From Candidatus Aenigmatarchaeota archaeon (GTDB lineage: Archaea > Aenigmatarchaeota > Aenigmatarchaeia > CG10238-14 > SpSt-28), in NCBI GenBank assembly GCA_038997165.1, contig JAWBAK010000001.1, positions 440,917 through 504,916 on the forward strand: 64,000 nt of DNA. The letters run 5' to 3'. Each line of letters begins with the position of its first letter. Positions within the stretch are counted from its first letter, which is position 1. The notes beneath the pieces are model-generated. The model saw nothing but the letters and a program-made list of their open reading frames with translations. It was not told where the DNA came from and ran no database searches. Shown here piece by piece: positions 12,711 to 64,000 of this stretch. The translations under genes were made by a program, and so were the position numbers.

Positions 12711-13314
12711 AAGGTAAAATCACTTTTGAATCAAAGAAATAAGAAGTATTTGATGAGATTAAAATTCCATCTCTATAGATATTCCCTTCTTTATTAATTA
12801 GAGATTTCACATCTATTCTAATATCTAAATTTAATGGAAAATCAAAAAAGTTTTTTATTAAAATTTTATATGAATTTTCAAAAGCAATTAATTTAACAAA
12901 ATTTCCTACATCTCTTTTCTCTACTTCTTTTATTATGAATTCTCTAATTTCTGAAGAAATACATACTTTATCTTCAATATAATTTACTTCTATTATTTCT
13001 CCAGTTTTTAAATAAAAAGTAGCGTTCTTTGGTAAATCGTAACAGTAAAAACTTCTTTTAATTAGATACGGATAATTTATTTTATATTCATAAGTTCTTT
13101 CAATAATATAAAAACTACTTTCTATATCTTTTCTTATCCAAATAAAGGCATTAGATATTTCAAACTTCCTAATAAGAGTTAATTTTGGAGTTTCTAAAAA
13201 TTTATATAAATTAAAATAAAAAAGAGAAATTGAAATAGTTAAAATTAGAGTTATGAAAAATCTTTTTATTGCAAGATTTTCTTTCAATCTTTTTATCTTA
13301 TCTAATCTTACCAT
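12676..13314 (-). CDS. hypothetical protein with one N-terminal TM helix
   Basis: 212-aa ORF packed between ABCE1 and tmcA; hydrophobic stretch FFITLILTISISLFYF. Confidence 0.7.
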   Translation of the reverse strand: MVRLDKIKRLKENLAIKRFFITLILTISISLFYFNLYKFLETPKLTLIRKFEISNAFIWIRKDIESSFYIIERTYEYKINYPYLIKRSFYCYDLPKNATFYLKTGEIIEVNYIEDKVCISSEIREFIIKEVEKRDVGNFVKLIAFENSYKILIKNFFDFPLNLDIRIDVKSLINKEGNIYRDGILISSNTSYFFDSKVILPYGNLEYEIRRN

Positions 13315-13316
13315 AA

Positions 13317-15068: not shown

Positions 15069-15169
15069 AAAGCATTTAAATTTCTTTTCGAAATATATTT
15101 GAAACGAATAGTAATGTTTAACATTAATGAAAGAAATTAATATAAATCTTTAATGCTATTTATATTTAT

Positions 15170-18100: not shown

Positions 18101-18313
18101 AATGAAGCTGTTTTAAGAGCTATTGAATATTTAATAAAAGAAGCACATAAAAATAAAGTAACTGTAAGTATTTGTGGACAAGCTCCAAGTGTATATCCGG
18201 AATTTACTGAATTTCTAGTTAAAGCTGGAATTGACTCAATTAGTGTAAACCCAGATGTAGTAATAAAAACTAAAAAATTAGTTTATGAAGTTGAGAAAAA
18301 ATTAAAAAGATAA
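15170..18313 (+). CDS. ppsA: phosphoenolpyruvate synthase precursor containing an intein
   Basis: GGKGANLGE, RSSATAED, SFAGQQET, phospho-His motif T|SHAAIVSRE split by the intein, NPMLGWRG, SIGSNDLTQ, ICGQAPS. Confidence 0.96.
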   Translation: MKYIKFLKELSKNDVNIAGGKGANLGELINSGIPVPNGFVVLGNAYREHIVRNRIDKKIKEILDQTDVDNTEQLEKNTEKIRELIKSAPMPKDVEKEIIEAYKKLSEIEGGKEIYVVARSSATAEDIKEASFAGQQETILNVKGVENVLNAVKKCWASLFTARATFYRTKKGFDHLKVDIAVVIQKQLGKISKEEYLKGKYVAGVAFTIHPASGDKNKIVIEAHYGQGEAVVSGYVTPDTFVIDKRTGKILEKHISKKTKMKIASGDFGLEEVEVPKELSEIPCLNDKILRELWKILLKIEKHYNFPQDVEYVVENEKIYIVQSRPVTAFFEKKLDEINIKIKPILKGLAASGGIAIGRVKILKDASEINKIEEGDILVTTMTEPDMVPAMKKAAAIITDEGGMTCLAPNTKLITNYGILEAEKVYKLVAEDKVVYLLSMNLEKKLVWKRIIAAGRRKDYIYKIFIRDFFDAIYLTKDHKAIIFEDSQIKKVPIEILYKRNIPLISIVDIPEKLISINSKKLAYLIGSLIATKKLSEIIENINRDNSYQIQILKSELLEFENTFLIKILNNLEIFVLNLDKESTKYFLKGLLSVNNSIEIWEENLIKAISLALIKIGVLPDMINGKLILKKDKLKRRKILRFPINFISKEKYDYVYNFEVYGSNELEKNYIILSENFVPILVSNSHAAIVSREMGIPCIVGTKEATKVLVENQIVTVDAYRGYVYDGKVEELLKYIKSEEVEVEEVKKLKTKAKILMNLGVPEAIKKYRNLPFEGIGLMRIEFIIGSYIKYHPNYLIEQRKEDEYINKLAEGIALVAKEIYPRFVVVRFSDFKTNEYAALIGGEKYEPKENNPMLGWRGASRYISKEFENAFRLECRAIKKVRDEYKLKNVWVMIPFVRTVEELEKVLKIMEEEGLKRSEDFKVWMMAEVPSNVFLVDKFSKYVDGFSIGSNDLTQLILGVDRDSALLARLGYFDERNEAVLRAIEYLIKEAHKNKVTVSICGQAPSVYPEFTEFLVKAGIDSISVNPDVVIKTKKLVYEVEKKLKR
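16385..17221 (+). mobile_element. intein (279 aa) in PpsA with degenerate LAGLIDADG endonuclease remnant
   Basis: Begins CLAPNTKL after GGMT; block B LTKDH, block F VYNFEV; ends VSN followed by +1 Ser of SHAAIV. Removing it restores GGMTSHAAIVSRE. Confidence 0.93.
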
Positions 18314-18319
18314 AGTTAA

Positions 18320-34969: not shown

Positions 34970-35070
34970 TGCCCCGGCCGGGATTTGAACCCGGGTCTGC
35001 GGCTTTCCTTTCATTAATCAATCCTTTCTGATCGAAAGGCCGCCATCCTTGGCCGCTAGACGACCGGGGC
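34970..35070 (-). tRNA. tRNA-Glu(TTC) with 28-nt intron at 37/38 (intron 35005-35032)
   Basis: Acceptor GCCCCGG/CCGGGGC, anticodon stem GCGGC/GCCGC, loop CT TTC G|A. BHB: central helix CTTT/AAGG, bulges CGA and AAA, intron helix TCA/TGA. Confidence 0.93.
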
Positions 35071-38591: not shown

Positions 38592-38837
38592 ATGGAGGAA
38601 AACAAAAAAAATATAATTTTTAATCATTTTTTATCTCCAAAATATTCGATACTTTCTGAAAATGAAAAAGAAGAACTACTAAAAAAATATAATGTTAAAT
38701 TATCTCAACTACCAAAAATATTTATTGATGATCCTGTAGTTAAAGCTTTGGGAGCAAAAGTTGGTGATATAATAAAAATAGAAAGAAATATATTAGGAAT
38801 AAAATCAATATATTATAGAGTGGTTGTAGAAAGATGA
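38592..38837 (+). CDS. rpoH: RNA polymerase subunit H (Rpo5)
   Basis: HFLSPK, QLPKI..DDPVV, GDIIKIER, YYRVV. Confidence 0.96.
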   Translation: MEENKKNIIFNHFLSPKYSILSENEKEELLKKYNVKLSQLPKIFIDDPVVKALGAKVGDIIKIERNILGIKSIYYRVVVER

Positions 38838-40350
38838 ACCAAAATCTATTAATTACATTACTTTTGAAATCGTATATAGAAGAAAATGGATTAGTTAAGT
38901 ATCAAATAGATTCATATAATGATTTTGTGACTAGAAGATTTCCAAAATTAGTTAGAAGTGTTGGAACAGTTAAGCCAGAAATTCCGGAATTAGGAGATAT
39001 AAAAATTCATTTTATAGATGCGAGAGTTAATAATTATCCAACATTTGTAGAAGCTGATGGAGTTGTAAGAGGAGAAAATAATCCATTATTACCATTTGAA
39101 GCAAGAATAAGAGGTTTAACTTATTCTACTCCAATGTATTTAAAAGTTATTACAGAGGTAGGTGGAATTAAAAGTGATCCAATTGAAGTTTATTTTGGTC
39201 AATTACCTGTAATGGTTAAATCGATTATATGTCCGTTATCTAGAATGAGTAGAGAAGAATTGATTAAAGTAAGAGAAGATCCAGATGATCCTGGGGGATA
39301 TTTTATAATTAATGGTGTAGAAAGAAATTTAATTTTGATTGAAGAACTTGCAAATAATAAGCCAATAGTTAGAAAAGTTGATCAAAATAATATAATTGTA
39401 AATTGTAGAGTAAATTCAGAAAGAGAAGGATATATTGTTAAACATCTTTTTGAATTAAAGAAAAACGGAATATTATTAGCTACATTTTCTGCTTTAAGAG
39501 ATTTTCCATTAGTAATTCTATTTAAGGCATTAGGAATAGAAAGTGATGAAACTTTATTAAATTTAATTTCAGAAGATAAAGACGTTCAAGAAGAATTTAT
39601 TATAAATTTATATGAATATCCTATAACTACTCAAGAAGAAGCTTTAGATAAAATTGGAGAATATTTAAAAATTCCTCAAAAAAGATTAAGGAAAGAAAGA
39701 GCTGAAATGATTATAGATAAATACTTTCTTCTTCATTTAGGTCAAACTAAAAAAGATAGAATAAATAAAGCAATATTTTTGGCAAAAATTGTCGAAAGAA
39801 TGTATAAGGTTGCTCTAGGAAAGGAAAAAGAAGATGATATTGATCATTATGCAAATAAAAGAGTAAGATTAGCTGGAGAATTATTTGAAATTTTATTTAG
39901 AACAATTTTAAAAGGAAAGCAAGGAGTAATAAATAGAATGATATTTAATTATCAAAAACTCGCAAAAAGAGGAGGTTTACCTCCAATTCATGCTGCAATA
40001 GATGCAAATTTTGTTACTAATATTGTTCAATCTGTTATGGCAGTAGGAACATGGATTGGAAATAGAACTGGTACATCTCAAAGATTAGAAAGAACTAATT
40101 TCAATAAAACATTAACACATTTAAGAGTTGTTAGCTCTCCACTAAAATCTACACAAGAACATTTTGAAGCTAGAGAGTTGCATCCAACACATTTTGGAAA
40201 ATTATGCCTAGTAGAAACACCAGAAGGACCAACTATAGGTTTGAGAAAACATTTAGCTATTTTTAGTGAAATAACTTTTGGAGTTAGTGATGAAGAAAGA
40301 GAAAAAATAAAAAAATTAATTGAAGAAGACATAGAATATAAAGTTGAATT

Positions 40351-40354
<4 letters not shown>
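38834..40354 (+). CDS. rpoB2: RNA polymerase subunit B'' (Rpo2N)
   Basis: QIDSYNDF, EARIRGLTYS, DPGGYFIINGVER, DHYANKRVRLAG, ETPEGPTIGL. Confidence 0.96.
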
Positions 40355-44599
<4,245 letters not shown>

Positions 44600-44628
<29 letters not shown>

Positions 44629-45727
44629 AATATATGAAAGTTTACCGGAAAATTTGAAGAAAAAAATAGATGATGCTATAAAAAAATTTAATTTAAAAGA
44701 GGAAAAAAAAGAAAAATTAATTTTAAGAGTATATGAAGAATATTTAAAGAATTTAGTTGAACCAAATGAAAGTATTGGAATTTTAACAACTCAAAGTGTT
44801 AGCGAACCAGCAACTCAAGCAACAATGAGAGTATATCATCTTGCTGGTACTGTTGGTTTAAAAATTACACTAGGTTTGCCAAGATTAATAGAGTTATTTG
44901 ATGCAAGAAAGGAAATTTCTTCTCCAACAATGATAATATATTTGAAAGAAGAATATAATAATGAAGAAAAAGCATATGAACTTGCAAATAGTATAATAGA
45001 AAAAAAATTAGAAGATTTAGCTTCTCTAATAATAAATTTAAGTGATTTTACAATAGAAGTAATACCTAATAATAAGGAAGATTTTGAAGAAATATTTGAA
45101 AAATTAAAAGAAAAAACAAAGGTTTGTGAAATTGAAAAGCAAAAAAATAAAATAGTACTAATTCCCAAAAAAGAGTATGAATTTAAAGATTTAAGAATTT
45201 TAAGAGATAGAATTTCAAAAATTACTATTAAAGGGATTAAAGGAATAGAAGCTGCAATAGTTAGCAAAGAAGGAAATAAATGGATTATACAAACTCAAGG
45301 AAGCAATTTAAAGGAAATATTAAAGCATCCTTGGGTTGATGAAACACTAACATATTCAAATAATCCGCATGAAGTTAAAGAAGTATTGGGAATAGAAGCT
45401 GCAAGAAATTTATTATTATTAGAAATATATAAAACATTACAACAACAAGGTTTAGATGTTAATGTAAGATTTTTATCTTTAGTTGCTGATACAATGTGTT
45501 TTAGCGGCGATATAATGCCAATAGGTAGATATGGTGTTGCAGGAAGAAAAGCTAGTGTTTTAGCAAGAGCTGGTTTTGAAGAAACCACAAAACATTTAAT
45601 AGAAGCTGGTGTAAAAAACTTAAAAGATGAATTAAAAGGATCTTTTGAAAATATTATGATTGGAAATATAGCAAAAGTAGGAACAGGAAGAGTAGAAATA
45701 ACAATAAAATATGGAGATAATAAGTGA
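44600..45727 (+). CDS. rpoA2: RNA polymerase subunit A'' (Rpo1C)
   Basis: EPATQATMR..H.AG, TLGLPRLIE, VLGIEAAR, SVLARAGFE, ENIMIG..AKVGTG. Confidence 0.95.

Positions 45728-49315: not shown

Positions 49316-49326
<11 letters not shown>
49282..49326 (+). other. 5' strand of 16S pre-rRNA processing stem with BHB motif
   Basis: GGCATCTGGTGATAG-AGAA-(AAA)-GTTGTAGTGGTAATTCTGGCTGA pairs with 50790-50834. Confidence 0.9.
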
Positions 49327-50789
<1,463 letters not shown>

Positions 50790-50792
<3 letters not shown>

Positions 50793-50834
50793 GCTAGAAT
50801 TACCACTACAACTTCTAATCTATCACCAGATGCC
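50790..50834 (+). other. 3' strand of 16S pre-rRNA processing stem with BHB motif
   Basis: TCAGCTAGAATTACCACTACAAC-TTCT-(AAT)-CTATCACCAGATGCC, complementary to 49282-49326 (23 bp with one G.U, 4 bp, 15 bp). Confidence 0.9.
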
Positions 50835-51021: not shown

Positions 51022-51741
51022 ATGGGCTATTTAGAAATAATTATATCATCAACAATATTTTTAATGTTATTGGTAACAGCTTTTCTTTTCTTGAATTATA
51101 GATTTCAAGAATATAAATATATAAATTCAGAAATTTTTTATAAAGAACTTTTGCTTTCATATTTTGATAGGCTAATATATTCTAATCCAAACGTTTATAA
51201 AGATTTGGTTATTAAAATTTTTGAAATTAATATTAGCGAAAGTGATAATCAAGTTATTTATATAAATTTCAATGTTAGTTGTGAAAAGAAAATAAATGTA
51301 ACATCTATAAGAATTTATAATTCTAATTTTTCTGAATTAGCATTTAAAATAAAAGATTATGATGTTTGTAGCGATAATAGTTTATATAGAGCTAATATAT
51401 CAATTTTTTTACAAAATTTTTCTAACAAAGAAATTTTATATGTTTTTATGTCATCTAGTTATGGAAATCCAATATTATATGATTTTGAAGAAAATTATAA
51501 AAATGCAAGTTATAAATATATAGGCACTATTACTTTAAAGGGTTTAGATCTTTTTACTTTTGAAAATATTGTAGAAGAATATTGTAAAAATAGAGGAGAA
51601 GTCGAGATAGAGGTTTTTGAAAATGAAAATATAATTATGAGTTGTAAAAAAAACAAAGCTGGAAATGTTTTTTCTTTTAATATGCCTATTTTATCGATTA
51701 ATGGAAAAAAACTAAATATAATTTTTAGAATTTTTGAATAA
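51022..51741 (+). CDS. N-terminally anchored exported protein (pilin-like)
   Basis: MGYLEIIISSTIFLMLLVTAFLFL hydrophobic N-terminus with Glu, followed by a sequon-rich beta domain. Confidence 0.7.
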   Translation: MGYLEIIISSTIFLMLLVTAFLFLNYRFQEYKYINSEIFYKELLLSYFDRLIYSNPNVYKDLVIKIFEINISESDNQVIYINFNVSCEKKINVTSIRIYNSNFSELAFKIKDYDVCSDNSLYRANISIFLQNFSNKEILYVFMSSSYGNPILYDFEENYKNASYKYIGTITLKGLDLFTFENIVEEYCKNRGEVEIEVFENENIIMSCKKNKAGNVFSFNMPILSINGKKLNIIFRIFE

Positions 51742-51742
51742 A

Positions 51743-52129
51743 ATGGAAAAATTTTTAGAATTGGCAATTTCTTTTACTATTTTATTATCTTTTATTTTTG
51801 TTTTTCTTTTTTATTCTTCCAATTTATATTTAGAAGATGATGAAATAATAAAAGTTAAAATTTATAATGTTTTAAACTCTTATAATCTTGAAATAAGAAG
51901 CTATGCGTTTTTAGGAAAAACAACTGAAATAGAAAATATTTTAAAAAATGAACTTCCAAAAATTTATGATTTTAAAGTTTTGATTTGTTATGAAAAAAAT
52001 TATGATGAATGCTTTAAAAATATAAAGTTTAATGCAAATAACGTTTTTTCTGTAAGTTATTTTTTTTCATCTAACTTTACTAACTATGAAAATATTGAAT
52101 TAATAATATATGCTTGGAAAAAAATTTAA
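51743..52129 (+). CDS. N-terminally anchored exported protein (pilin-like)
   Basis: ATG 51743, MEKFLELAISFTILLSFIFVFLFY. Confidence 0.7.
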   Translation: MEKFLELAISFTILLSFIFVFLFYSSNLYLEDDEIIKVKIYNVLNSYNLEIRSYAFLGKTTEIENILKNELPKIYDFKVLICYEKNYDECFKNIKFNANNVFSVSYFFSSNFTNYENIELIIYAWKKI

Positions 52130-52670
52130 ATCACAATTTTTTATAATTGCAACAGGAATATTTATATTAATTTTTAGTGTTAACTTTTTTTATTTTGGAT
52201 ATTTAAGTAAAAAAACTAATTATCCAAGCAATTTAATAATTTTAAGAACTATCGATAATTATCTAACAGAAGCAAACCTTCTTTTGGAAAATGAAAAAAT
52301 TTCAGAATTTTTTAGTTTTTCAGAATTTTTTATTAATACTTCTAAAAAAAGAAATTTTATTATAGAAGTTTTGTTTTCAAATATTAGTTTAGATTCTTCT
52401 CAAAAAAAGATTAATTTTGAAATATATCTTTTTTCTGAAAGAGAATATTTTTTAAATATTTCTTCTGATATAGATTTCTTAGCTTTTAATTTAGAGCCAA
52501 GAATTTTAAAAAATATAAATATTAGTTTTGAAAATTCTCAATTAATTAATATAACTATTTTTAATTCATCTTTTTTTATAGTAAATTGTGAATCAAATTG
52601 CAAATTTTTAATTTCTATGGGTTATAAAGATGATATAAAAATAATTAAATCTTTGCTTTTGAAAAGCTAA
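52110..52670 (+). CDS. pilin-like protein with KSQ-type class III signal
   Basis: MLGKKFKSQFFIIATGIFILIF; many N-x-S/T sequons. Confidence 0.7.
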   Translation: MLGKKFKSQFFIIATGIFILIFSVNFFYFGYLSKKTNYPSNLIILRTIDNYLTEANLLLENEKISEFFSFSEFFINTSKKRNFIIEVLFSNISLDSSQKKINFEIYLFSEREYFLNISSDIDFLAFNLEPRILKNINISFENSQLINITIFNSSFFIVNCESNCKFLISMGYKDDIKIIKSLLLKS

Positions 52671-52687
52671 AGAGTAATTTTATATTT

Positions 52688-53152
52688 ATGAAATTATTAT
52701 CGGAATTTGTTTCGAAAGTTTTGATTTTTCTTATTTCTATTATAGCTATTTCTATAGCTTTACTTTTTTTAAATCCTATAATAGATAGGAATTTAAATTC
52801 TATTTCAATTCAAGAAGCCATTTCTAATATGAAAAAAATTGAAGCTATAAGTAAAGAAGTTTTAAGCGAAGCAATAGGATCTCAGAGAGTTTTAGAGATT
52901 AGAATTTATAGAGGTATTTTATATGTTAATAATAGTTCAATCGTTTATATTCTAGAATCAGATAATATTCCTTTAGAAGATTTTACTAAAAAAGATGGAA
53001 ATTTATTTATTAAAAAAATTGGTAATACTTTTTCTATAACTTTAAATTTTGAATATGCAAATATTGTTGGCAATGTTTATTTATCTAGTGGAAATCATAG
53101 AATATGTATTCTTAAAGATGCTGAGCTAACAATAAAAGTTTATGTTTGTTAA
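52688..53152 (+). CDS. pilin-like protein
   Basis: MKLLSEFVSKVLIFLISIIAISIALLFL; paralogous to 53161 (IGS..I.I..G.L.V, IVGN..S.G). Confidence 0.72.
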   Translation: MKLLSEFVSKVLIFLISIIAISIALLFLNPIIDRNLNSISIQEAISNMKKIEAISKEVLSEAIGSQRVLEIRIYRGILYVNNSSIVYILESDNIPLEDFTKKDGNLFIKKIGNTFSITLNFEYANIVGNVYLSSGNHRICILKDAELTIKVYVC

Positions 53153-53160
53153 AATTTTTT

Positions 53161-54027
53161 ATGAGATTAATATCTAATACAATATCTCTTTCTATTTATA
53201 TAATTTTATCACTTTTTTTAATATCTTTTTTTTTATCTATTACTTTTAAAGAATTAATTGAAAAATCTAGAATAAGTAGCACTTTTTTACAAGTAATAGA
53301 ACAATTAAGATTTTTAGATGCTACAATTTTATATTTAAACAGTTTAGATATAGGTTCAAAAACAAGTATAAAGATTTATATTCCAGAAGGAAGATTATTA
53401 GTTAAAGATGGTAAAATATTTTATGAATTAGAAACTGTTTCAACTTTTGAATTTCTTAAAAATATTGTAAGATCTTTTAAAAATTTGGCATTAATATTTA
53501 GAAATGTTAGTATAAAATGTGAAATTAGAGAAAATAATTGTTTAGAAAGCGAGGAATGCATTTTTTCTATGTATAAATTAAATAATTCTCATATAGCAGA
53601 TTGCAATTCTTTAAATTATCCTTATAAAATTTGTTGTAAAGATTTAGAAATTAGAAAAGCTGAGACTTGTTATGAAAAAGAGTCTGAAATTCTTAGAATT
53701 TTAAAAGATGAAAACTCTCATGCAGGTTTTAATAAATATTCCTTTAGAATTTGCTCATATCCAATAATTTTATGTTCTTTAAAGAATAAATGTAGCAATA
53801 ATGAAATTTGTGTAGCGTCTTTTTATAAAGATTTTAATTCTCATGCAGCTGTATGTAATTATTATCCAAATAATCTTTGTTGTTATTCTTCTATTTCAGA
53901 AATAGGTAAAATAATTCTAAGTTATTTAGATATAGAAATTATTGGTAATTTTGTAATTTCTAAAGGAGAATATACCTTAGTAATAGAAAAAATCGATTTT
54001 AATAAAATAAAAATTTATGTATTATGA
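53161..54027 (+). CDS. pilin-like protein with three Cys-rich NSH repeats
   Basis: ATG 53161, MRLISNTISLSIYIILSLF; repeats ..NSHIADC, ..NSHAGF, ..NSHAAVC. Confidence 0.75.
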   Translation: MRLISNTISLSIYIILSLFLISFFLSITFKELIEKSRISSTFLQVIEQLRFLDATILYLNSLDIGSKTSIKIYIPEGRLLVKDGKIFYELETVSTFEFLKNIVRSFKNLALIFRNVSIKCEIRENNCLESEECIFSMYKLNNSHIADCNSLNYPYKICCKDLEIRKAETCYEKESEILRILKDENSHAGFNKYSFRICSYPIILCSLKNKCSNNEICVASFYKDFNSHAAVCNYYPNNLCCYSSISEIGKIILSYLDIEIIGNFVISKGEYTLVIEKIDFNKIKIYVL

Positions 54028-54497
54028 AGTTAATATCTGCTTATATAGCAACAATTATAATAGTTTTAGTAACTCTTACTATTGGATTTTTTGTTTATAC
54101 TTGGTATTTTCAATTTTTTCAAAGAACTGGTGAAGAAATTGAAAGGATTGAAGAAAAACGAATTTCTTGCCAATTTGGTTCATTTATAGTTTTAACAGAA
54201 ACTCTAAATTGTACTTTTGAATTTTTAAATTTTTCTTTAAAAAACAATGGTTACATAGATTTATATAATTTGAAAGTTGTTGTTTTTGATGGAATAAAGA
54301 TGCATACATTAGATGTTTATGATGAAAATGGAAATATTGCTGATATTAATAATCCATTAAAGCCTAATACTGTTAACAATTATTATGTTAATATTTCTGG
54401 AATTTCTAAAATTTTAAGTTTAGAGTTTTTAACTCAATGTGCTAATGTAAATATAAAGATTAAAGACTTAAATATATCATGTACACAGAAAGAATAA
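54024..54497 (+). CDS. archaeal type IV pilin-like protein
   Basis: MKLISAYIATIIIVLVTLTIGFFVYTW closely parallels canonical KGISPLIAT; LKNNGYIDL. Confidence 0.8.
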   Translation: MKLISAYIATIIIVLVTLTIGFFVYTWYFQFFQRTGEEIERIEEKRISCQFGSFIVLTETLNCTFEFLNFSLKNNGYIDLYNLKVVVFDGIKMHTLDVYDENGNIADINNPLKPNTVNNYYVNISGISKILSLEFLTQCANVNIKIKDLNISCTQKE

Positions 54498-55093
54498 AAA
54501 CAATTAGTAGGGGAATAATATTAATAATTTTAGGTATTATAATAGGTATATATCCTTTTCAAATAGTTGGAAATTTTTTAGAGGTTGAAAGTATTAGGGC
54601 AAATACTAAAAAATTTTATGAGTTATTAATACCAAATTCTATTGTTAGTGTTGAAAGTGTAAAAAAGGAGGGAGAAATGTATAAAGTTTTAGTTAAGTTG
54701 ATTTTAAATAATAATGTTAATTATATTGAAGCGTGGGTATCTAAAGATTCAAATATTTTAGTTGAAGGTGTAATATACTTAAAAGATTCTATTAAAACTT
54801 TAGAAAAATATAAGAAATTTGTAGAATGTTTAAATAATAAAGGAGTAAAGATATATGGTTTATTAGATTCTCAAAATTATCCTGATGCTGCATTATTAAC
54901 TTCTAGACAACTAAATTTATTGGGAAGATATTCTTATTTAATTTTTGTTAGTTGCGATGGTGATATGATGCAAGCATGTATAAATTCTGGAATAACACAA
55001 TTTCCAGCAGTAGTTTATAATGATAAAGTTTATTTTGGAGTTGGAGATATTGATTGGTTTTCTAATTTAACTGGATGTAAATTTATTGATTAA
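54479..55093 (+). CDS. membrane-anchored exported protein with thioredoxin-like C-terminal domain
   Basis: N-terminal TM; FVECL..KGVKIYG...FVSC....C...GITQFPAVVY...G......LTGC. Confidence 0.7.
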   Translation: MYTERIKTISRGIILIILGIIIGIYPFQIVGNFLEVESIRANTKKFYELLIPNSIVSVESVKKEGEMYKVLVKLILNNNVNYIEAWVSKDSNILVEGVIYLKDSIKTLEKYKKFVECLNNKGVKIYGLLDSQNYPDAALLTSRQLNLLGRYSYLIFVSCDGDMMQACINSGITQFPAVVYNDKVYFGVGDIDWFSNLTGCKFID

Positions 55094-55130
55094 AAATAAA
55101 TTTAATTTATTGTTTAATTAAATTTTATTT

Positions 55131-55901
55131 ATGTTAGAAAGAATATTATTAGTATTTTTAATTTTTATTTCAACTTTTTTTATTGCTATCTCTTATGATT
55201 GTCCATTACAATCCCATCCTTTATCCGAAATTTGTCCTATAGATGTTAATTTAAATATGAGAGGATTTAATATAACAAATGTTGGAGAAATTATTGTTAG
55301 TGGAAGAATTGTTGCATCGATTTTATGTATTGGTAATGATTGTAAATCTTCATGGCCTAGTATAGTTGAATCGGATCCATTTTGGTCTTTTAATATTAGT
55401 AGAATAAATATAGGATATTTAATTAAAAGAGGTGAATCTGGAATTTTTCAATCAATAATTTATGAAAAAAATGGTAAAATAGGTATTGGAACTGAAAATC
55501 CACAAGATACACTTGAAGTTATTGGTAATATAACTGCTAGTGGGATTATTAGAGCAAATAAAATATGTGTAGGAGAAAATTGTAGCGATATTCTTGGAAA
55601 CTTAAGTGGTCATGGTATAAAAAATACAATTGCTTATTGGTCTAGTGAAAATACTTTAGAATCAACTCCATTTTATGTTAATAGTAATTTTGACCTTAAT
55701 TTATCTTGGAAAAGTATTTTTAATGTTCTTTGGCTTAATTCAACTTATATATATTCTTCGGATTTGATTTATTCTTCTGGAAAAGTTGGAATATCTACAT
55801 ATCCGGAATATTCGTTAGATGTTATAGGTAATATTAGAGTTAGAATAGGATCAACTGTTTTTACTATTGAGAATACTGGAGATGTTTTAGTAGCACTATG
55901 A
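55131..55901 (+). CDS. secreted tail-fibre-like protein (VGIG repeats)
   Basis: Signal peptide; GKIGIGTENP..LEVIGNI, ICIGNDCKSSWP, GKVGIST..LDVIGNI. Confidence 0.8.
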   Translation: MLERILLVFLIFISTFFIAISYDCPLQSHPLSEICPIDVNLNMRGFNITNVGEIIVSGRIVASILCIGNDCKSSWPSIVESDPFWSFNISRINIGYLIKRGESGIFQSIIYEKNGKIGIGTENPQDTLEVIGNITASGIIRANKICVGENCSDILGNLSGHGIKNTIAYWSSENTLESTPFYVNSNFDLNLSWKSIFNVLWLNSTYIYSSDLIYSSGKVGISTYPEYSLDVIGNIRVRIGSTVFTIENTGDVLVAL

Positions 55902-57748
55902 ATAAAAAATATATATTTAATTTAAAGTATTATATTATGAAGATTAATATAGGTTTATCTCACATATTTTTAATCTTTTTAATGACTTTACTTTTTAACA
56001 CATCTTTTTCTCAAGGAAATTTTATAATAAGAAATAAAACAGATATAAACATAGTATATTTTATAGTTAACGGAACTACTGGTAGAGTTGGTATAGGATT
56101 AATAAATCCTCAATATAAATTAGATGTTAGCGGTGATGTTAGAGTTAGTGGTAACTTATTTGTAACTAGTGGAATTAATATTGGAGGTGATTTAAGTATA
56201 GGAGGAAATATAGTAATAACTTCAGGAAGAGTAGTACAAAATATAGCTAGTGTTGGAACTAATTTAATTCCTTCTAGTGATAATTCTTATGATTTAGGTA
56301 ATTCAACTCATAGATGGAGAGCTGTTTATGCAAGTGGATATTATATTGGCGCTACTCAAATAATTGATAGTTCAAGAAATATAATAAATGTTAATTGGGT
56401 TAATGCAACTAATATAAACGCAACTCAATCAATAAGAGCAAGTATTATTTATCAAGGAAACAATCAAGTTATAGATACGATAAGTGCAAATGCACCAATT
56501 ACTGTAAGTAGAAGTGGAAGTTCAGTAACTATTGGACTACAAGCAAGTGGAGTAACAGCAGGAACTTATGGATCTGCATCACAAGTACCTCAAATTCAAG
56601 TTGATGCATATGGAAGAATAACTTCTGCAAGCAATGTTAACATTGCTATTGATGCTAGCCAAATTGTTTCTGGAATAATTTCTTCTGCGAGATTAGATAG
56701 TAATATAGCTTGGTTAAATAGAACTCAAACATGGACAGCCCCTCAAACATTTAATGAAAACGTATGGTTTAATAAAAATGTTTTTATAGTCGGCAATATT
56801 TCTTATGTTAATGTTCAAAATTTAAACGTTAATGGAAGTTTCGTTCCAATAGCTACCGGAGTTTTTAGTTTAGGAAGTCCAGAATACAAGTGGAAAGATA
56901 TATATGGAATAAATATATATGGAGATAATGTTTATTCTGGAGGTAATTTGGTATTAACAAACGTAACCAATTTTGCTAATTCAGCAGATAGTGACATTAC
57001 AGTTAGTGGAACTTATAATAGCCTTAATTTACAAATAAGAGCTGGAGCTGTTGGAACAAATGAATTAGCTCAAATTTCTTGTCCTCCAAATCAGGTATTA
57101 GCTTCGATTGGTGGAGGTAGTTATACTTGTGTTGATGTAAATCCAGCAAATGTTATTAATGGTACTGGTCAGCCAGGACAAATAGCTTATTTTTCATCTA
57201 CTAATACATTAAGCGGAAGTAATCAGTTATTTTTGGATACTACGAATTGGAGAGTTGGTATAGGAACTACTTCACCAGTTAGAAAATTAGATGTGGTTGG
57301 AGATATTAATGCAACTCAAGCAATTTATTCAAGCCAAGGATATTATGTTGGCACAACTCAAATAATAACTTCTGGAAGAGTATTACAAAATATAGCTAAT
57401 GTTGGAACCCATTTAATTCCTTCTAGTGATAATGCTTTTGATTTAGGTAGTTTAACTAATAGATGGAGATGGGTTAATGCAACTAATATAAATGCAACTC
57501 AATCAATAAGAGCTTCTCAAATTTGTATAGGAAATGATTGTAGAAGTGCATGGCCAACTTTAGTAGAAACTGATCCATATTGGAATTCAAATATAACTGC
57601 TATTTCAGCTAATTATTTAATTAAAAGAAGTCCAACCGGTATAGCTCAATCGATAATTTACGATGATGGAGCTAAAGTAGGAATTGGAACAAATTCTCCA
57701 GCTGGTTTATTGCATATTAGAGGAGGAGATATAATAATAGAAGTGTAA
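55898..57748 (+). CDS. secreted tail-fibre-like adhesin 1 (616 aa)
   Basis: Signal peptide; three VGIG repeats, LIPSSDN..DLG...RW repeats, phage-fibre-like TAGTYG...VDAYGRITSA segment; many sequons. Confidence 0.85.
   Translation: MNKKYIFNLKYYIMKINIGLSHIFLIFLMTLLFNTSFSQGNFIIRNKTDINIVYFIVNGTTGRVGIGLINPQYKLDVSGDVRVSGNLFVTSGINIGGDLSIGGNIVITSGRVVQNIASVGTNLIPSSDNSYDLGNSTHRWRAVYASGYYIGATQIIDSSRNIINVNWVNATNINATQSIRASIIYQGNNQVIDTISANAPITVSRSGSSVTIGLQASGVTAGTYGSASQVPQIQVDAYGRITSASNVNIAIDASQIVSGIISSARLDSNIAWLNRTQTWTAPQTFNENVWFNKNVFIVGNISYVNVQNLNVNGSFVPIATGVFSLGSPEYKWKDIYGINIYGDNVYSGGNLVLTNVTNFANSADSDITVSGTYNSLNLQIRAGAVGTNELAQISCPPNQVLASIGGGSYTCVDVNPANVINGTGQPGQIAYFSSTNTLSGSNQLFLDTTNWRVGIGTTSPVRKLDVVGDINATQAIYSSQGYYVGTTQIITSGRVLQNIANVGTHLIPSSDNAFDLGSLTNRWRWVNATNINATQSIRASQICIGNDCRSAWPTLVETDPYWNSNITAISANYLIKRSPTGIAQSIIYDDGAKVGIGTNSPAGLLHIRGGDIIIEV
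56057..56233 (+). repeat. module A, 177-bp direct repeat (second copy 57934-58110)
   Basis: Identical by manual comparison. Confidence 0.93.
56235..56371 (+). repeat. module B, 137-bp direct repeat (second copy 59225-59361)
   Basis: Identical by manual comparison. Confidence 0.93.
57260..57398 (+). repeat. module C, 139-bp direct repeat (second copy 59101-59239)
   Basis: Four mismatches seen (g/a; aac/cta). Confidence 0.92.
57400..57664 (+). repeat. module D, 265-bp direct repeat (second copy 58128-58392)
   Basis: Identical by manual comparison. Confidence 0.93.
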
Positions 57749-57801
57749 ATAAATAAAATATAAGTTTAAAATTAAAAAATATTAAAAAGAAAAGATATTT
57801 T

Positions 57802-60453
57802 ATGAAAACAAAAAATTTTTATATTGTTTTGTTTTTGATATTTATTTTTATTAATATTTATAAACTAGACTTGGTTAGTTCTCAAGTATATAAAGATTTT
57901 ATAATTAGAAATATTTCTAATACTTCTACTGTTTATTTTATAGTTAACGGAACTACTGGTAGAGTTGGTATAGGATTAATAAATCCTCAATATAAATTAG
58001 ATGTTAGCGGTGATGTTAGAGTTAGTGGTAACTTATTTGTAACTAGTGGAATTAATATTGGAGGTGATTTAAGTATAGGAGGAAATATAGTAATAACTTC
58101 AGGAAGAGTATTGCAAAATATAGCTAGTGTTGGAACCCATTTAATTCCTTCTAGTGATAATGCTTTTGATTTAGGTAGTTTAACTAATAGATGGAGATGG
58201 GTTAATGCAACTAATATAAATGCAACTCAATCAATAAGAGCTTCTCAAATTTGTATAGGAAATGATTGTAGAAGTGCATGGCCAACTTTAGTAGAAACTG
58301 ATCCATATTGGAATTCAAATATAACTGCTATTTCAGCTAATTATTTAATTAAAAGAAGTCCAACCGGTATAGCTCAATCGATAATTTACGATACAGGAAC
58401 AAATGTTGGAATTGGAACAACTTCACCAAGCTATAAATTAGATGTAGTTGGAGATATAAGAAGTACAGGAAGTGTGATAACTTCAATTGTAAAAGCAGAG
58501 GCTCCTTATACTTACGTGGGACAGGCAGATAATCTATTAGGAGTGGCTAGACTTATGCCTAATGCTTTCGGTTTTAATCCACCTTATAAAGTTGAAGAAT
58601 ATAACCCAGGAAGTGGTACGTGGAACGACATAACCCAAAATTACACTTGGGGATATATCACAGATTTAAGGGGAACAGAAGTGGCAATTCCATTGGCAGC
58701 TAATGTAGATAAGACTATTAGATTTTACTTTAATATAGGAGGCTGGAGTGGGGGAGATCTAACTGCCATTGTATTATATGCAAGATGGATAAACAGCCTA
58801 AAACAAGTAAAGGTTGAATCTTCGACAACTTCAGATTTCTCAAGTGGAGTAACCACAAGATTAGATTGGAACGGAAATATAGGACATTGGGATGAGGTAA
58901 CTCTTTGGCGCTTGACAAGTAGAACTGGCGGTGATACTTATATTAGAGTCACTTTCACTTTTATGAGAACAAGTGATGGAGAAATAAGGATAAGGGAGCT
59001 AATGGGATTAAGTTATGCGGCTGTCGGTAGAATATTTGAAGGATATGTTCCATATAGTTGGGATCACAATAAAAATGTTTTCTTTTTGGGTAATGTTGGA
59101 ATAGGAACTACTTCACCAGTTAGAAAATTAGATGTAGTTGGAGATATTAATGCAACTCAAGCAATTTATTCAAGCCAAGGATATTATGTTGGCACCTATC
59201 AAATAATAACTTCTGGAAGAGTATTACAAAATATAGCTAGTGTTGGAACTAATTTAATTCCTTCTAGTGATAATTCTTATGATTTAGGTAATTCAACTCA
59301 TAGATGGAGAGCTGTTTATGCAAGTGGATATTATATTGGCGCTACTCAAATAATTGATAGTAATAGAAATTTGGTTAATATTAATCAAATTATTGCTGAT
59401 GGTCCAATGAACATAGATAGTGGAACTTTATATGTAGATTCGGCTAATGATAGAGTTGGAATTGGAACGGCAAGTCCAACAGCAAAACTAGACGTAAGAG
59501 GAAATATTATTCTTATTTCTCCCGATAGTGGAATATATGCATATGAAATGAGAAGAACAGATGAGGATAATAATTTACATTGGTGGAGAATATGGCATAT
59601 GAACAATAATTATAGAAAGAATGCACTAGAAATTTGGGAGTATTTAGCTAATACCTCTTATGATTCAAACCCGTGTAATAATAATCCTGGAGATATATGC
59701 GCTCCTCGAATTATTATTACTAGTGGAGGTAACGTTGGAATAGGAGGTATAGTTCCAAGCTATAGATTAGATGTAGCAGGAGATATAAGAGGTCAAAATA
59801 ATTTGTATGTTTCTGGAAATGTTGGTATTGGAACAACAAATCCACAAGGAAAATTACATGTTTATGATGGAACAAAAGAGTTGATGAAAGTTGTTAATGA
59901 TGCTGATGTTAGTGGTATTGTTGTTGGTAGTGCTGAGGGGGGAAGACATTTAATAATTAATGATGTTCCTCAAGCACGATGGGCTTTAGCTACTGGTGAT
60001 TATGATTTGTCTTTTCAGAATGATTATGGTGGAATATGGAATACAAGAATGATAATTACTGAAAGTGGTAATGTTGGTATAGGAACTACAGCACCTAATA
60101 CGTTACTTCATCTTTACAAAACTGATGGAGTTGAATTAAGAACGGAGAGTGATTGGAATTATGCAATTTTTAGAGTAAAAGTTGGTAGTAATATGGGATG
60201 GTTTGGACGAGGTATTGGATGGAGTGGAATAGGATTATATAATGATCAAGGAGGAGGTATTTTATATCTTGCAGATATAACAGGCAATGTTGGTATTGGG
60301 ACTCTTTCTCCATCAGAAAAATTACATGTTATGGGAAATATAAGAACTTCTGGAAATATAACTATTGAAGGTAATTTTATAAAGGATTCTTCCAATATAA
60401 ACAGAATCCAGTTTGATGCTATAAATAGAAATGTAATAATTTGGGTTGGTTAA
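57802..60453 (+). CDS. secreted tail-fibre-like adhesin 2 (883 aa)
   Basis: Signal peptide; eight xxVGIG(T)..P..(K/R)L(D/H)V repeats separating unique domains. Confidence 0.85.
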   Translation: MKTKNFYIVLFLIFIFINIYKLDLVSSQVYKDFIIRNISNTSTVYFIVNGTTGRVGIGLINPQYKLDVSGDVRVSGNLFVTSGINIGGDLSIGGNIVITSGRVLQNIASVGTHLIPSSDNAFDLGSLTNRWRWVNATNINATQSIRASQICIGNDCRSAWPTLVETDPYWNSNITAISANYLIKRSPTGIAQSIIYDTGTNVGIGTTSPSYKLDVVGDIRSTGSVITSIVKAEAPYTYVGQADNLLGVARLMPNAFGFNPPYKVEEYNPGSGTWNDITQNYTWGYITDLRGTEVAIPLAANVDKTIRFYFNIGGWSGGDLTAIVLYARWINSLKQVKVESSTTSDFSSGVTTRLDWNGNIGHWDEVTLWRLTSRTGGDTYIRVTFTFMRTSDGEIRIRELMGLSYAAVGRIFEGYVPYSWDHNKNVFFLGNVGIGTTSPVRKLDVVGDINATQAIYSSQGYYVGTYQIITSGRVLQNIASVGTNLIPSSDNSYDLGNSTHRWRAVYASGYYIGATQIIDSNRNLVNINQIIADGPMNIDSGTLYVDSANDRVGIGTASPTAKLDVRGNIILISPDSGIYAYEMRRTDEDNNLHWWRIWHMNNNYRKNALEIWEYLANTSYDSNPCNNNPGDICAPRIIITSGGNVGIGGIVPSYRLDVAGDIRGQNNLYVSGNVGIGTTNPQGKLHVYDGTKELMKVVNDADVSGIVVGSAEGGRHLIINDVPQARWALATGDYDLSFQNDYGGIWNTRMIITESGNVGIGTTAPNTLLHLYKTDGVELRTESDWNYAIFRVKVGSNMGWFGRGIGWSGIGLYNDQGGGILYLADITGNVGIGTLSPSEKLHVMGNIRTSGNITIEGNFIKDSSNINRIQFDAINRNVIIWVG

Positions 60454-60454
60454 A

Positions 60455-61726
60455 ATGTTAGGTAAAAAATTTATTATTATAATAGTTATTTTTGCGACTT
60501 TTTCATTAGTATATTTAAATTTATTTACAACATCTATCGAATCTTTTTTACTAATAAAAAATGATAATAAAAAAATTTTAAATGAAAAAATAAATAGTAA
60601 TTTAAGTTATTTTCAGGATTTAAAAACTATTGTTTTTTCAGATTTAGATCCAATATTTTGTAATATTAATTTTAATCCTCCATGGTTTGTTGTATATAAT
60701 AATGATGGTGGCTACTTAATTATTATAAGTTCGGAAGGAAATTTATTCATTAATACAACTTCTAATCTTATTATAACATCTTCTGTTAGACAAACTGGAT
60801 GGCTAAATGCATTTATTTTAAGAAATTCTTCTCATATTCTTTTTGCAGCTAATAGAACTCACACTCAAATTTATGGTGGATTTGTAGAAAATGTAAATCC
60901 AATACCAACTACAAATAGTTTTGTAGTGAGAAATCTTTCTAATAATGTTGTTTTAGCTATTTTTAATTCTTCAGATGGAAAATTTTATTTAAGAGGAAAA
61001 GCAGTATATACTGGAAGTCAAGCTGGATGTCCCTCTGATGGTTGGTATTGTTCAGGAGATATTCGTGAATATAGAGATTATTATTGTTATGCTCCTTCTG
61101 GTTCTTGTAGATATACTGTAACTCAATCTGAAAATTGTAATAATTATGATGTTTGTCTTAATTATGGAAATAATGCGGGCTGTGGCTCAGATCCCACTGC
61201 AGAAAAAAGAGATTATTATTGTTCTAATGGTGCTTGTGTATATACTTATTCTAGTGTAAATTGTGATAGCTATGATATTTGTACAAATGTATGTGGTGGT
61301 GACAATAAGATATATTCTTATAAAGATTATTATGTCTCTTCTTCTTGTACTTGTACTTATTCTTTAGGATCCTTAGTAGAAGATTGTACAACAAAAGCAT
61401 CTACTGATACAGATGGAGGAGATGCTCCATTTACTCAAGGAACTGTAACAGATTATGTAGGTTGTAGTGGAACAAGCTCAACTTGTAATGTTTATAATAC
61501 TTATACGGATTATTGTTCTAGTAGTACAACTTTAGTAGAATATTATCCGAGCGGTAGTAGTTATGGAAGTAAAACGTATGATTGCTCTGTATTTTGGACT
61601 TGTGATATTTGTTATGGGCAACAAGGTTTGCGATATGCTTGTTATGCATGTATTACAGGAAAATGTGCTGGTGGATGTAGTAATTCACCAGTTTCTGGTT
61701 ATACGTGTATAAATTGTGTAATATAA
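60455..61726 (+). CDS. exported protein with beta-rich N-domain and Cys/Tyr/Ser-rich C-terminal repeats
   Basis: ATG 60455, MLGKKFIIIIVIF; F(I/V)(L/V)RN repeats; (R/K)DYY(C/V) x3, DTDGG..TQGTV..TDYC..LVEYY. Confidence 0.82.
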   Translation: MLGKKFIIIIVIFATFSLVYLNLFTTSIESFLLIKNDNKKILNEKINSNLSYFQDLKTIVFSDLDPIFCNINFNPPWFVVYNNDGGYLIIISSEGNLFINTTSNLIITSSVRQTGWLNAFILRNSSHILFAANRTHTQIYGGFVENVNPIPTTNSFVVRNLSNNVVLAIFNSSDGKFYLRGKAVYTGSQAGCPSDGWYCSGDIREYRDYYCYAPSGSCRYTVTQSENCNNYDVCLNYGNNAGCGSDPTAEKRDYYCSNGACVYTYSSVNCDSYDICTNVCGGDNKIYSYKDYYVSSSCTCTYSLGSLVEDCTTKASTDTDGGDAPFTQGTVTDYVGCSGTSSTCNVYNTYTDYCSSSTTLVEYYPSGSSYGSKTYDCSVFWTCDICYGQQGLRYACYACITGKCAGGCSNSPVSGYTCINCVI

Positions 61727-62269
61727 ATTTGTTTAGATTATAATAAAATAAAATACTTTGTTTATTAATTTTGATAAAATTTTTAAAACAAATTTTTAAA
61801 ATTTAAATATATTTTACAAGCTAATATATAGTTACATTCTCGTTTTAAAGAAAAATCATTTATAATCACAACTAAATTTATTAATACAACTTTAATTTTT
61901 TATTGTAAATAACATTAATGAATTCTAAATTCTTTTTTCTTTAAAACTTTACTTTCTCTCATCAATTTTCTGCTTTAATTTTTTAGTTCAAAAGCAATCT
62001 ATGTAATCTAAATTGGTAGCAATTTTCTTTACTTAAACATTAGATTTTATTGCTACTATCTAACGTCTAAAGTTAAACAATTATTTCGAAACAAGTTCTC
62101 TAAATTGTACTTCAATAAATAATTAAAAAGATAAAAGGTATAGAAAAGGAAAAGTTAAGTAAACTTAACTTTATTTTTCTAAAAAGTTTCTATCCTTACA
62201 AAAAATCTAGAAAGATAATATTGCATATAATAATTTAATAATTTAGACTATTCAAAAATTAACATAATA

Positions 62270-62881: not shown

Positions 62882-64000
62882 TTAATCTTGTTTTAACAAC
62901 CATTTCCATAAAGGTATGCATTTAATTTTTTTGTTTTCAAAATTTAACTCATCTTCATAATCCCAAGTAATTATTAATAAATCTTCGCATTTTAATAATT
63001 CACTTGCTTTAATTAATGCCCTTATTTCTCTTTTTTCTATTTCATCTTTATTAGATGCATATGTTACTTGAATTAATTGCTTAATCTTTAACCCTTCTTT
63101 AATTACAAAATCTACTTCATACTCATTAGTTTTAAAATAATATATTTTGCTTAGTGGTCTATAGTTCGTGCTTCTGAGTAATTCTAAGTAAACTGTATTT
63201 TCCATCTTTTTTCCAAAATCTTTTTCAAATCTAACTAAATTAGATAAACCTAAATCACAAATATAAATTTTGTTTGGCCAGCTTTTTCTTTCATATAAAC
63301 TTTTTCTAAATTTTTCTACACAAAAGCAAAAAAATATATCGGAAATTTTATCGAAATAATTATAAATAGTCGATTTTGTTTCAACTTTTAGGTTTGAAGT
63401 TACATAGTTAGCTATTTTCCTTATACTAATCTCTTTTGAAAAATTTTGAAGAATAAATTCAAAAATTAAAGATGCCACATTTATACTTTTTATACCAAAC
63501 CTTTCAACAAAATCTCTATAGAAAATTAAATCGAAATATTCTTTAAGAAGTTTTTCTTTTTTCTCAAAAAATAATACAACTTCTGGATATCCACCCCATT
63601 CTAAGAATTCTTCTAAAAGTTTCTTTATTTTTATTTCCTCATCTAGAGAAATAAATTGCTTTATTTGTATTTCTTTAAACTTTAAAAATTCTCTAAAGCT
63701 TAATGGTAATAAAATATAGCTTAGGCTTCTTCCTCTAAGTTGCGTTGCAATTTCCTTAGAAAGCAGTTTTGAAGAAGAACCTGAAATAAAAACATAATAT
63801 CCCATATCAAGTAGTGATCGAACTAAGGATTCCCAACTATTAATTACTTGAATTTCATCCAAAAAAATATTTTTAACCTTTTCATTAAAATAATTTTCAT
63901 AAATTCTCACTATTTTTAAAATTTCTTCTGGAGTAACATTTCTGAATGCAATATTTTCAAAATCGAAATAAATACTTTCACTTTCCTTAGAAAATAGTTT
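62882..64000 (-). CDS. AAA+ ATPase with DUF4143 domain (COG1373-like), 5'-truncated by window edge
   Basis: Frame open to 64000; FLDEIQ, SGSSSKLL, LRGR, PLSFREF, GGYPE, KIYICDLGL, YEVDFV, IPLWKWLL. Confidence 0.92.
   Translation of the reverse strand, partial: KLFSKESESIYFDFENIAFRNVTPEEILKIVRIYENYFNEKVKNIFLDEIQVINSWESLVRSLLDMGYYVFISGSSSKLLSKEIATQLRGRSLSYILLPLSFREFLKFKEIQIKQFISLDEEIKIKKLLEEFLEWGGYPEVVLFFEKKEKLLKEYFDLIFYRDFVERFGIKSINVASLIFEFILQNFSKEISIRKIANYVTSNLKVETKSTIYNYFDKISDIFFCFCVEKFRKSLYERKSWPNKIYICDLGLSNLVRFEKDFGKKMENTVYLELLRSTNYRPLSKIYYFKTNEYEVDFVIKEGLKIKQLIQVTYASNKDEIEKREIRALIKASELLKCEDLLIITWDYEDELNFENKKIKCIPLWKWLLKQD

Follow-up and report, generated by a model that had tools for sequence, protein, structure and literature searches.

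The window, that is, the whole 64,000-nucleotide stretch of Candidatus Aenigmatarchaeota DNA analysed here, contains two adjacent genes for phage-tail-fibre-like proteins, whose repeat modules are joined in all four upstream/downstream combinations around a short conserved hinge. Gene 1 (55898..57748, plus strand) encodes a 616-aa protein with the layout A-hinge-B ... M1 ... C-hinge-D, while gene 2 (57802..60453, plus strand) codes for an 883-aa protein with the layout A-hinge-D ... M2 ... C-hinge-B, followed by more NVGIGT repeats. They are preceded by gene 0 (55131..55901, plus strand), a 256-aa secreted paralogue that shares ∼50% identity with the D tail in its middle part and matches PHROG tail families at E 1.5e-4. 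All three genes begin with an N-terminal hydrophobic segment. The genome in question (652 kb, or 651,930 bp; 24.5% G+C; 4 contigs; 94.5% complete) was searched with tblastn for further fibre paralogues of this kind, and none was found outside 55131-60453.

The modules were delimited by an exact-match script run over positions 55000-61800 and by a four-way alignment, which reproduced the shuffled arrangement described in the original prediction. Both copies of module A (56057..56233 and 57934..58110, 177 bp), module B (56235..56371 and 59225..59361, 137 bp) and module D (57400..57664 and 58128..58392, 265 bp) lie on the plus strand and are 100% identical, and the copies of module C (57260..57398 and 59101..59239, plus strand, 139 bp) differ by four mismatches only, the number noted before, at 57295 and 57355-57357. 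The N-terminal repeat thus consists of A and B in gene 1 and of A and D in gene 2; the C-terminal repeat, of C and D in gene 1 and of C and B in gene 2. All four gametes in the sense of the four-gamete test (A-B, C-D, A-D and C-B) are therefore present, and because all four upstream/downstream combinations occur, the mosaic needs recombination with breakpoints in the hinge, which bears out the recombinational origin proposed earlier. In 30-nt windows, the flanks on either side show 43–77% identity and the tracts themselves 100%; a jump this sharp at the tract edges cannot be due to chance.

The four 71-bp copies of the hinge were located where they had been predicted, at 56214..56284 (ITSGRVVQNIASVGTNLIPSSDN), 57363..57433, 58091..58161 and 59204..59274, all on the plus strand. 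They are 93–100% identical in pairwise comparison, and the 651,930-bp genome has no full copy besides these four. Arithmetic on the coordinates places the start of each of them in codon phase 1 of its own gene, so that hinge-to-hinge crossovers, including those between the two genes, would remain in frame; the repeats are direct, and 0 inverted repeats were detected in 54000-61000, in line with the in-frame chimeras originally envisaged. According to the four-way alignment, the upstream-linked (TCA/TCT) and downstream-linked (ACTAAT/ACCCAT) markers of the hinge lie 36 bp apart, and the switch between modules must hence take place within ∼35 bp. Three substitutions (56234 G, 58113 G and 57399 A) are confined to single hinge copies of this genome. 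Besides the hinge, there are at least two more conserved joint motifs. The second (WVNATNINATQSIRAS, repeat family D6) is found at 56396..56460 on the plus strand, with further copies inside D at 57470-57534 and 58198-58262; the third (NVGIGTTSPxYKLDVVGD, repeat family D2; reference copy 58402..58457, plus strand) is represented by 10 copies between 56084 and 60341.

The source genome is a metagenome assembly, and the layout was compared with Logan contigs, built from 31-mer unitigs, of the sequencing runs that bear the locus, all of which are hot-spring metagenomes. Contigs of this kind drop rare variants. The run designated X1, which holds 96% of the sampled words of the locus, is its probable source; it gives no cover at 55100-56200 and 59520-61700, and since records are filtered, these stretches are uninformative. 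The unitigs of X1 stop exactly at the module borders (those of the second copy of A among them), and the depths of A (104.6), B (103) and D (117.9) compare with 65.1 and 69.3 for the unique middles M1 and M2. The A-to-D junction has a unitig of its own (58081-58157, depth 66.5), another one (57635-57963, depth 43.6) connects the end of D, across the stop of gene 1 and the spacer, with module A of gene 2, and others link B to M1 and D to M2. Taken together, the depths, the junction unitig and the linking unitigs indicate that in the reads each module is present twice, A is joined to D and the genes stand in tandem. This part of the earlier call for a check against misassembly is thereby answered; which copy of A joins B or D is beyond the reach of 31-mer unitigs, and no unitig of the A-B or C-B junction is among those listed. 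A subpopulation carrying a deletion was considered as the cause of the lower depth of unitig 57635-57963 and rejected, as the A-to-D unitig, which the deletion would equally remove, stands at 66.5; coverage bias against AT-rich sequence is the more likely cause.

Neither Pfam (E<=0.01) nor NCBIfam returned a family for genes 0, 1 and 2; Peptidase_S74, the C-terminal intramolecular chaperone, was likewise absent from them in the Pfam scan at the same threshold, and a PDB sequence search with gene 1 yielded 0 matches at E<=1. Gene 2 matches the PHROG tail-fibre families phrog_9942 (E 6.2e-29), phrog_3269 (E 2.9e-22) and phrog_18345 (E 1e-16), and gene 1 matches phrog_7121 (E 5.5e-7). The protein database search led to 1949 proteins at E<=1e-5 among 8000 candidates scored, many of which bear Peptidase_S74 (PF13884), and most of which share little beyond the NVGIGTTSP..KL.V motif. 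The A-hinge-B segment was modelled as an intertwined homotrimer with a score of 0.96 against 0.00 for the best control, a pLDDT (predicted local distance difference test) of at least 91 and a contact agreement of at least 96% between runs. The mark applied was reached by 21 of the 30 solved one-chain pairs and by none of the 23 single chains, a calibration made with two copies and used here for three, and resemblance to solved fibres may account for the pass. The best explanation of these data is that genes 0, 1 and 2 are tandem paralogues for predicted secreted, trimeric, phage-tail-fibre-like surface proteins.

The middle part of gene 2 appears to contain a globular beta-sandwich (58558..59037, plus strand) with a fold resembling that of CBM32 or F5_F8-type-C domains. 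In the AlphaFold2 model of 58372-59148, residues 63-222 have a pLDDT of mostly 83-96, the value for the whole model being 66.7. The best Foldseek matches in the PDB were CBM32 modules (4a42_B, E 8.3e-5; 4zy9_A, TM score (template modelling score) of 0.67 by target), most of the 23 matches at E<=1e-3 were CBM32-type modules as well, and the Atlas gave the same lead; the Pfam scan returned no PF00754 profile match in M2. M2 is thus assigned, with moderate confidence and on the strength of the model, to CBM32-like domains of the glycan-binding type. Together with the PHROG matches and the predicted trimer, this domain fits the earlier description of the products as fibre- or adhesin-like, and the fibre proteins are plausibly adhesins. 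A separate observation concerns the composition of M2 (58393-59100), in which the G+C content of third codon positions (GC3) is 0.233 as against ∼0.10 in the remaining fibre genes and the housekeeping genes. Its protein sequence is 80% identical to that of P0002, a 4.2-kb contig binned as Ignisphaera sp., which means that either M2 was recently imported or the P0002 contig is mis-binned.

Relatives carry other combinations of modules on the same hinge, in support of the earlier reading. As judged by the motif table and the ORF (open reading frame) translations, P0002, a relative's contig, combines an A-like module and the hinge with a chimera of the D-head and the B-tail and with the gene-2 linker. 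In the sister species (G001), an N-terminus of the gene-0 type is fused to C, the hinge, the same D-head/B-tail chimera, the linker and M2, after which the contig ends. In the case of a representative of another genus (G012), a gene for a 2718-aa protein contains the hinge followed by the D-head, WVNATNVNATQSVRAS and M1, as well as the hinge followed by full D, and it has its own interlocking exact repeats of 81–123 bp. Fibres of the same family reach giant size in relatives: the 2718-aa protein is encoded at G012:C1:411421-419574 (L021 6421-14574, minus strand), and a 4599-aa one near G039:C2 174000-185000, and both frames contain many copies of C-like modules.

Contigs of other hot-spring runs (X2, X3 and X6) yielded 13 joints, 6 of which have at least 30 letters on the shorter side, and 4 of these 6 are in frame. 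In X6, the joint 56395->58198 connects the B-tail to the second half of D; in X2, the joint 57364->58198 replaces the hinge and the D-head by 33 nt. The two in-frame joints of X3 are a 463-codon skip (58428->59818), which removes M2 and C-hinge-B and falls at two copies of NVGIGTTSP..KLDV, and a 156-codon skip (59846->60315). These joints are ascribed to relatives, at a likeness of 90–99%, and are taken for their arrangements instead of variation within this strain. The sequence WVNATNINATQSIRAS acts as a junction both in G012 and in the X6 joint, and the joints of G012 and of the other runs indicate that WVNATNINATQSIRAS and NVGIGTTSP..KLDV serve as further joints, so the earlier statement that all joins fall in the hinge is not supported. 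Two exact-pattern scans of the metagenome_contigs set for the hinge core had 0 matches each, a weak negative given that the matching was exact only.

The modules were also compared with those of other lineages. The RNA polymerase operon of G012 shares 67% DNA identity with that of this genome, its nine matches to positions 1-20000 of the window are 65–75% identical, and pieces of the 16S rRNA gene are 78–90% identical; the fibre modules, by contrast, reach 87–95% over 100–390 bp, the hinge differs at 2–3 of 71 nt (96–97% identity), and the gene of the Cys-rich protein downstream of gene 2 is, in its 3' part, 88% identical in DNA to its syntenic counterpart in G012. Since this identity of modules is far above that of housekeeping genes, the modules appear to move laterally. 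Fibre patches of 81–88% identity were also found in G038, a member of another family with an RNA polymerase identity of 65%. In G001, the RNA polymerase operon is 95% identical and the fibre modules just 79–93%, in a different architecture, and G005, with 81% in RNA polymerase, has almost nothing in common in the fibre genes. The C-hinge-D DNA was detected in 9 of the 118 genomes of the order, this genome (G000) included; among the positives are 1 of the 6 further genomes of its own genus, 2 of the 9 from genus g2 and 1 of the 5 from genus g8. Such patchy spread, combined with identity above that of rRNA, suggests that modules move between lineages and that the locus turns over fast. GC3 is 0.10–0.145 in the fibre genes and similar, at 0.085–0.105, in housekeeping genes. 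The hinge variants 58113 G and 57399 A both occur in copies of G012, and one of them in G001; hence, two of the three single-copy substitutions are shared polymorphisms and not fresh mutations. Recombination-associated mutagenesis, considered as a source of 56234 G, 58113 G and 57399 A, is weakened by the recurrence of the latter two in the hinges of relatives.

The means of exchange were sought by profile searches of the 94.5%-complete genome. RadA is present (Rad51/RadA family match at C1:233971-234687, E 6.5e-93, 308.7 bits), and the searches found no RVT_1, Phage_integrase or Resolvase domain anywhere in the genome, nor Hjc. This agrees with the original prediction, which had noted that neither a reverse transcriptase nor an invertase was at hand. 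Adenine-specific pairs of template and variable repeats are missing from the locus as well, its repeats being either identical or different at four positions of mixed kind. No silent cassette was found in the genome, as tblastn homology is confined to 55131-60453 and the hinge to its four sites, so the suggested search for further cassettes or hinge copies came back empty. Genome-wide, there are 14 exact repeats of at least 100 bp, every one of them direct and with its copies at most 3 kb from one another, in several tandem paralogue arrays; A, B and D make up three of the 14. Local conversion therefore seems to be a general habit of this genome. With 11 other local exact direct repeats and RadA present, the pattern fits general conversion among tandem paralogues, and the notion of a dedicated diversification system is not supported.

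The remaining exact direct repeats (106–297 bp) lie at C1:187377-188813, 89103-89982, 97800-99539, 116179-117107, 130268-133332, 338110-339042 and 149784-150711, and at C4:1860-3716, and they suggest further tandem paralogue arrays under conversion. An AAA_14 and DUF4143 (COG1373-type) gene at 62882-63910 (minus strand) shares a 155-bp exact direct repeat with its neighbour beyond the window (G000:C1:503814-503968 = 505158-505312); it has at least 7 DNA matches in G012, at 68–84% identity.

Ordinary homologous recombination or gene conversion among the fibre repeats, not dedicated machinery, is probably what has produced the mosaic. The fibres would be built from short structural modules parted by joints, namely the 71-bp hinge, WVNATNINATQSIRAS and NVGIGTTSP..KLDV, which general homologous recombination (RadA) could use as islands of homology between otherwise unlike modules. 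Conversion tracts of 137–265 bp, or unequal crossovers, starting or ending in the hinge would have copied A, B and D among the four repeats, C having been copied slightly earlier, and all four upstream/downstream pairings would be the outcome of such copying. An unequal hinge-by-hinge crossover in a gene of the type A-B...C-D, for example, would place A-D in the product that bears the deletion and C-B in the one with the duplication, or in a circle. The same process may operate between strains and on DNA from other Aenigmatarchaeota lineages, so that modules are reordered, deleted, expanded and imported and the locus becomes hypervariable while its products stay in frame and foldable. The claim made here is limited to a minimum of two events with breakpoints in the hinge, the actual history being beyond resolution; no single-event history, be it one crossover or a Campbell-type integration, was found that yields all four pairs. 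We infer the direction and order of the events, an effect of the variation on fibre binding, and selection on that variation. The host-range variation ascribed earlier to module shuffling is likewise something that we only infer.

Several observations weigh against this account of the locus. No alternative junction was seen in the X1 contigs that cover it, and exchange may for that reason be rare on ecological time scales; the earlier suggestion that exchange is ongoing in the population thus gains no support from these contigs, which, as mentioned, lose rare variants. Two of the six better joints in the other runs have lengths that three does not divide (130 and 185 bases, with the letters in between not known), and the joints of X2, X3 and X6 were obtained by matching contigs at a likeness of 90%, at which they often come from other organisms or from repeats. 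No Hjc was found for the resolution of crossovers; conversion without crossover needs none. Selection on the DNA itself, and not recent transfer, could partly account for the hinges of different genera being nearly identical. Finally, the match of M2 to CBM32 is moderate, with TM scores of 0.5–0.67 by target and a pLDDT of only 66.7 for the model as a whole.

The surroundings of the locus are those of a cellular chromosome, with the 16S rRNA gene at 49316-50794 and the RNA polymerase genes at 38834-45727. Upstream of gene 0 the ORF list has seven small, tightly packed ORFs on the plus strand: six (51022-54497), the translations of which look pilin-like with an N-terminal hydrophobic helix, and a last one without an assigned function (54479-55093). 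The ORFs at 51022..55093 have no Pfam match, and the one at 54024-54497 gave a sub-threshold match to the pilin UpsA (E 6e-6, 26 bits against an NCBIfam cut-off of 130). The two ORFs adjoining the fibre gene are conserved in G001, and G005 has ORFs of the same size there, a comparison of sizes and not of sequences. Downstream, the end of gene 2 is overlapped by the gene of a 426-aa secreted protein (60446..61726, plus strand) that is rich in Cys, Tyr and Ser, shows recurrent spacing of the CxxxxC type and has no family match; it stands beside fibre genes in G012 too. Judging from gene spacing, the whole region from 51022 to 61726 looks like one surface operon. Two further features of the window deserve mention. 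RNA polymerase B' and A' are apparently fused in a 1425-aa ORF (40351-44628, plus strand), in which Rpb2 domains 4-7 precede Rpb1 domains 1-5, and which is flanked by separate B'' (38834-40354) and A'' (44600-45727) genes. In addition, a 101-nt Rfam tRNA match at 34970-35070 (minus strand, 50 bits), missed by ARAGORN, is possibly an intron-containing tRNA.

Explanations that would place the mosaic outside ordinary cellular recombination have to be judged against these data. An integrated virus or a tailocin-like element, in which the mosaic would be nothing but the usual mosaicism of viral tail fibres, is brought to mind by the PHROG tail-fibre matches, by the Peptidase_S74 (PF13884) domain of many database homologues and by the raised GC3 of M2 (0.233 vs ∼0.10 elsewhere). 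However, Pfam, PHROG and NCBIfam scans of 46.8-63.9 kb found no other viral gene by the locus, the genome lacks an integrase, the proteins themselves lack the S74 domain, and a scan of the viral_contigs set with C-hinge-D found no relative. The locus is moreover syntenic in G001 and G005, ∼10 kb from the RNA polymerase operon, the same Cys-rich gene adjoins it in G012, and its codon use is native. With pilin-like small ORFs, the Cys-rich protein, 16S rRNA and ribosomal genes as neighbours, the fibre genes are not set in a tail cluster, and a viral origin of this kind is highly improbable. Hardly more credible is an assembly artefact, in which repeats of 137–265 bp were wrongly threaded or alleles of two strains were joined one behind the other. 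A genome assembled from a metagenome invites such doubts, contigs of relatives do end inside these genes (G001:C15, G010:C13, G031:C3 and G018:C94), and the pairing of the A copies with B or D exceeds what 31-mer unitigs can tell. Against this stand the A-to-D unitig at single-copy depth, the unitig that spans the passage from gene 1 into gene 2, the unitigs linking B to M1 and D to M2, and the depth of A, B and D at ∼1.5–1.8 times that of unique sequence. Besides, with markers 36 bp apart in the hinge the assembled A-B and C-B joins cannot be errors of repeat resolution, any other threading would keep the same modules and junctions, and the contig spans 549 kb.

A different question is whether the hinge is a selected hot spot, at which cells or lineages switch fibres at high frequency, in the manner of contingency loci, to follow their hosts. 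Its synonymous sites are conserved far above background (2–3 differences in 71 nt to G012, where RNA polymerase identity is 67%), and the polymorphic sites are reassorted, with all four combinations of the TTA/TTG and AAT/AGT codons among seven copies. Every crossover would be in frame, and 3 of the 14 long exact repeats of the genome interlock here. Yet X1 holds no recombinant contig, the repertoire of a cell with four hinge copies and no silent cassettes in its genome would be tiny, no associated enzyme was found, and other joints serve equally; in the wider family, moreover, the hinge is conserved as a protein motif, which explains part of its conservation. Dedicated switching is therefore considered unlikely, and general recombination among the fibre repeats remains the preferred explanation. 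A bolder reading, in which the joints, above all the hinge, are kept near-invariant in DNA as recombination adaptors, and co-occurring Aenigmatarchaeota share a pool of fibre modules from which host-binding fibres are reassembled, seems doubtful, if somewhat less so than dedicated switching. Were it true, archaeal cells would have in this locus an equivalent of the “networked” pool of adhesins known from T4-type phages, deciding the host attachment of a symbiont of the DPANN group (Diapherotrites, Parvarchaeota, Aenigmarchaeota, Nanoarchaeota as well as Nanohaloarchaeota).

The probable mechanism of a mosaic fibre locus such as this is already known from the tail fibres of T-even phages and from adhesins of the BadA type and is unlikely to be that of a dedicated system. 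The closest match in both mechanism and sequence kinship is the T-even tail-fibre/adhesin locus. According to Trojet et al. (2011; PMC3157838), who cite Tetart et al. (1996, 1998), recombination in or near conserved motifs of the distal tail-fibre and adhesin genes (gp37/gp38) gives rise to chimeric adhesins, the modules of which come from a pool common to the genomes. The shared traits are fibrous trimeric receptor-binding proteins (predicted in the present case), variable modules flanked by conserved exchange motifs, a pool of modules across diverged genomes, the absence of a dedicated recombinase, and sequence kinship to tail-fibre families. The genes described here, in contrast, are chromosomal archaeal genes beside pilin-like genes, and their products carry a signal or anchor segment at the N-terminus; neither a virion context nor an adhesin of the gp38 type is present, and two tandem paralogues exchange with each other.

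Among cellular systems, the closest analogue is the badA island of Bartonella henselae, where repeat arrays are reshuffled among isolates (Thibau et al. 2022; PMC8859334). The likeness to badA and other trimeric autotransporters would be one of mechanism and not of homology: long repetitive trimeric adhesins, neighbouring paralogues as a toolbox, repeat recombination that alters length and domain order among isolates, and a need for long reads in assembly. The proteins of the window differ in having no autotransporter anchor, neck/stalk or YadA motifs, and they come from an archaeon, which lacks an outer membrane. Shufflons and the diversity-generating retroelements found in DPANN archaea resemble the locus in that their target is a surface or binding protein and their presumed purpose is varied binding, whereas no reverse transcriptase, adenine-specific repeat pair, inverted repeats or recombinase was found here. 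In Neisseria pilE/pilS and Borrelia vlsE, short conversion tracts bounded by conserved sequence alter a surface protein. The present locus is distinguished from these by the lack of silent donor cassettes, by both partners being full-length genes and by the absence of any sign of high frequency.

No account of mosaic genes for tail-fibre-like proteins in DPANN archaea came up in narrow searches of the literature. In Nanoarchaeota, the predicted surface proteins are reported to have a high density of non-synonymous single nucleotide polymorphisms (Jarett et al. 2018, PMC6142677), and thermal Aenigmarchaeota are reported to possess both RadA and type IV pili (Li et al. 2021, PMC8407114). The locus also serves as a warning that short-read assemblies of such regions may be broken or mis-threaded. 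DPANN archaea depend on attachment to a host, and their attachment proteins, as well as the evolution of these proteins, are largely unknown. The window offers a candidate for the attachment apparatus of an Aenigmatarchaeota member, consisting of predicted trimeric tail-fibre-like proteins with a domain of the glycan-binding type, encoded near pilin-like genes, and it shows how such an apparatus may change, by the exchange of modules at conserved joints, with modules crossing genus boundaries. It is this sharing of modules across genera, along with a named candidate for attachment, that chiefly makes the locus of interest.

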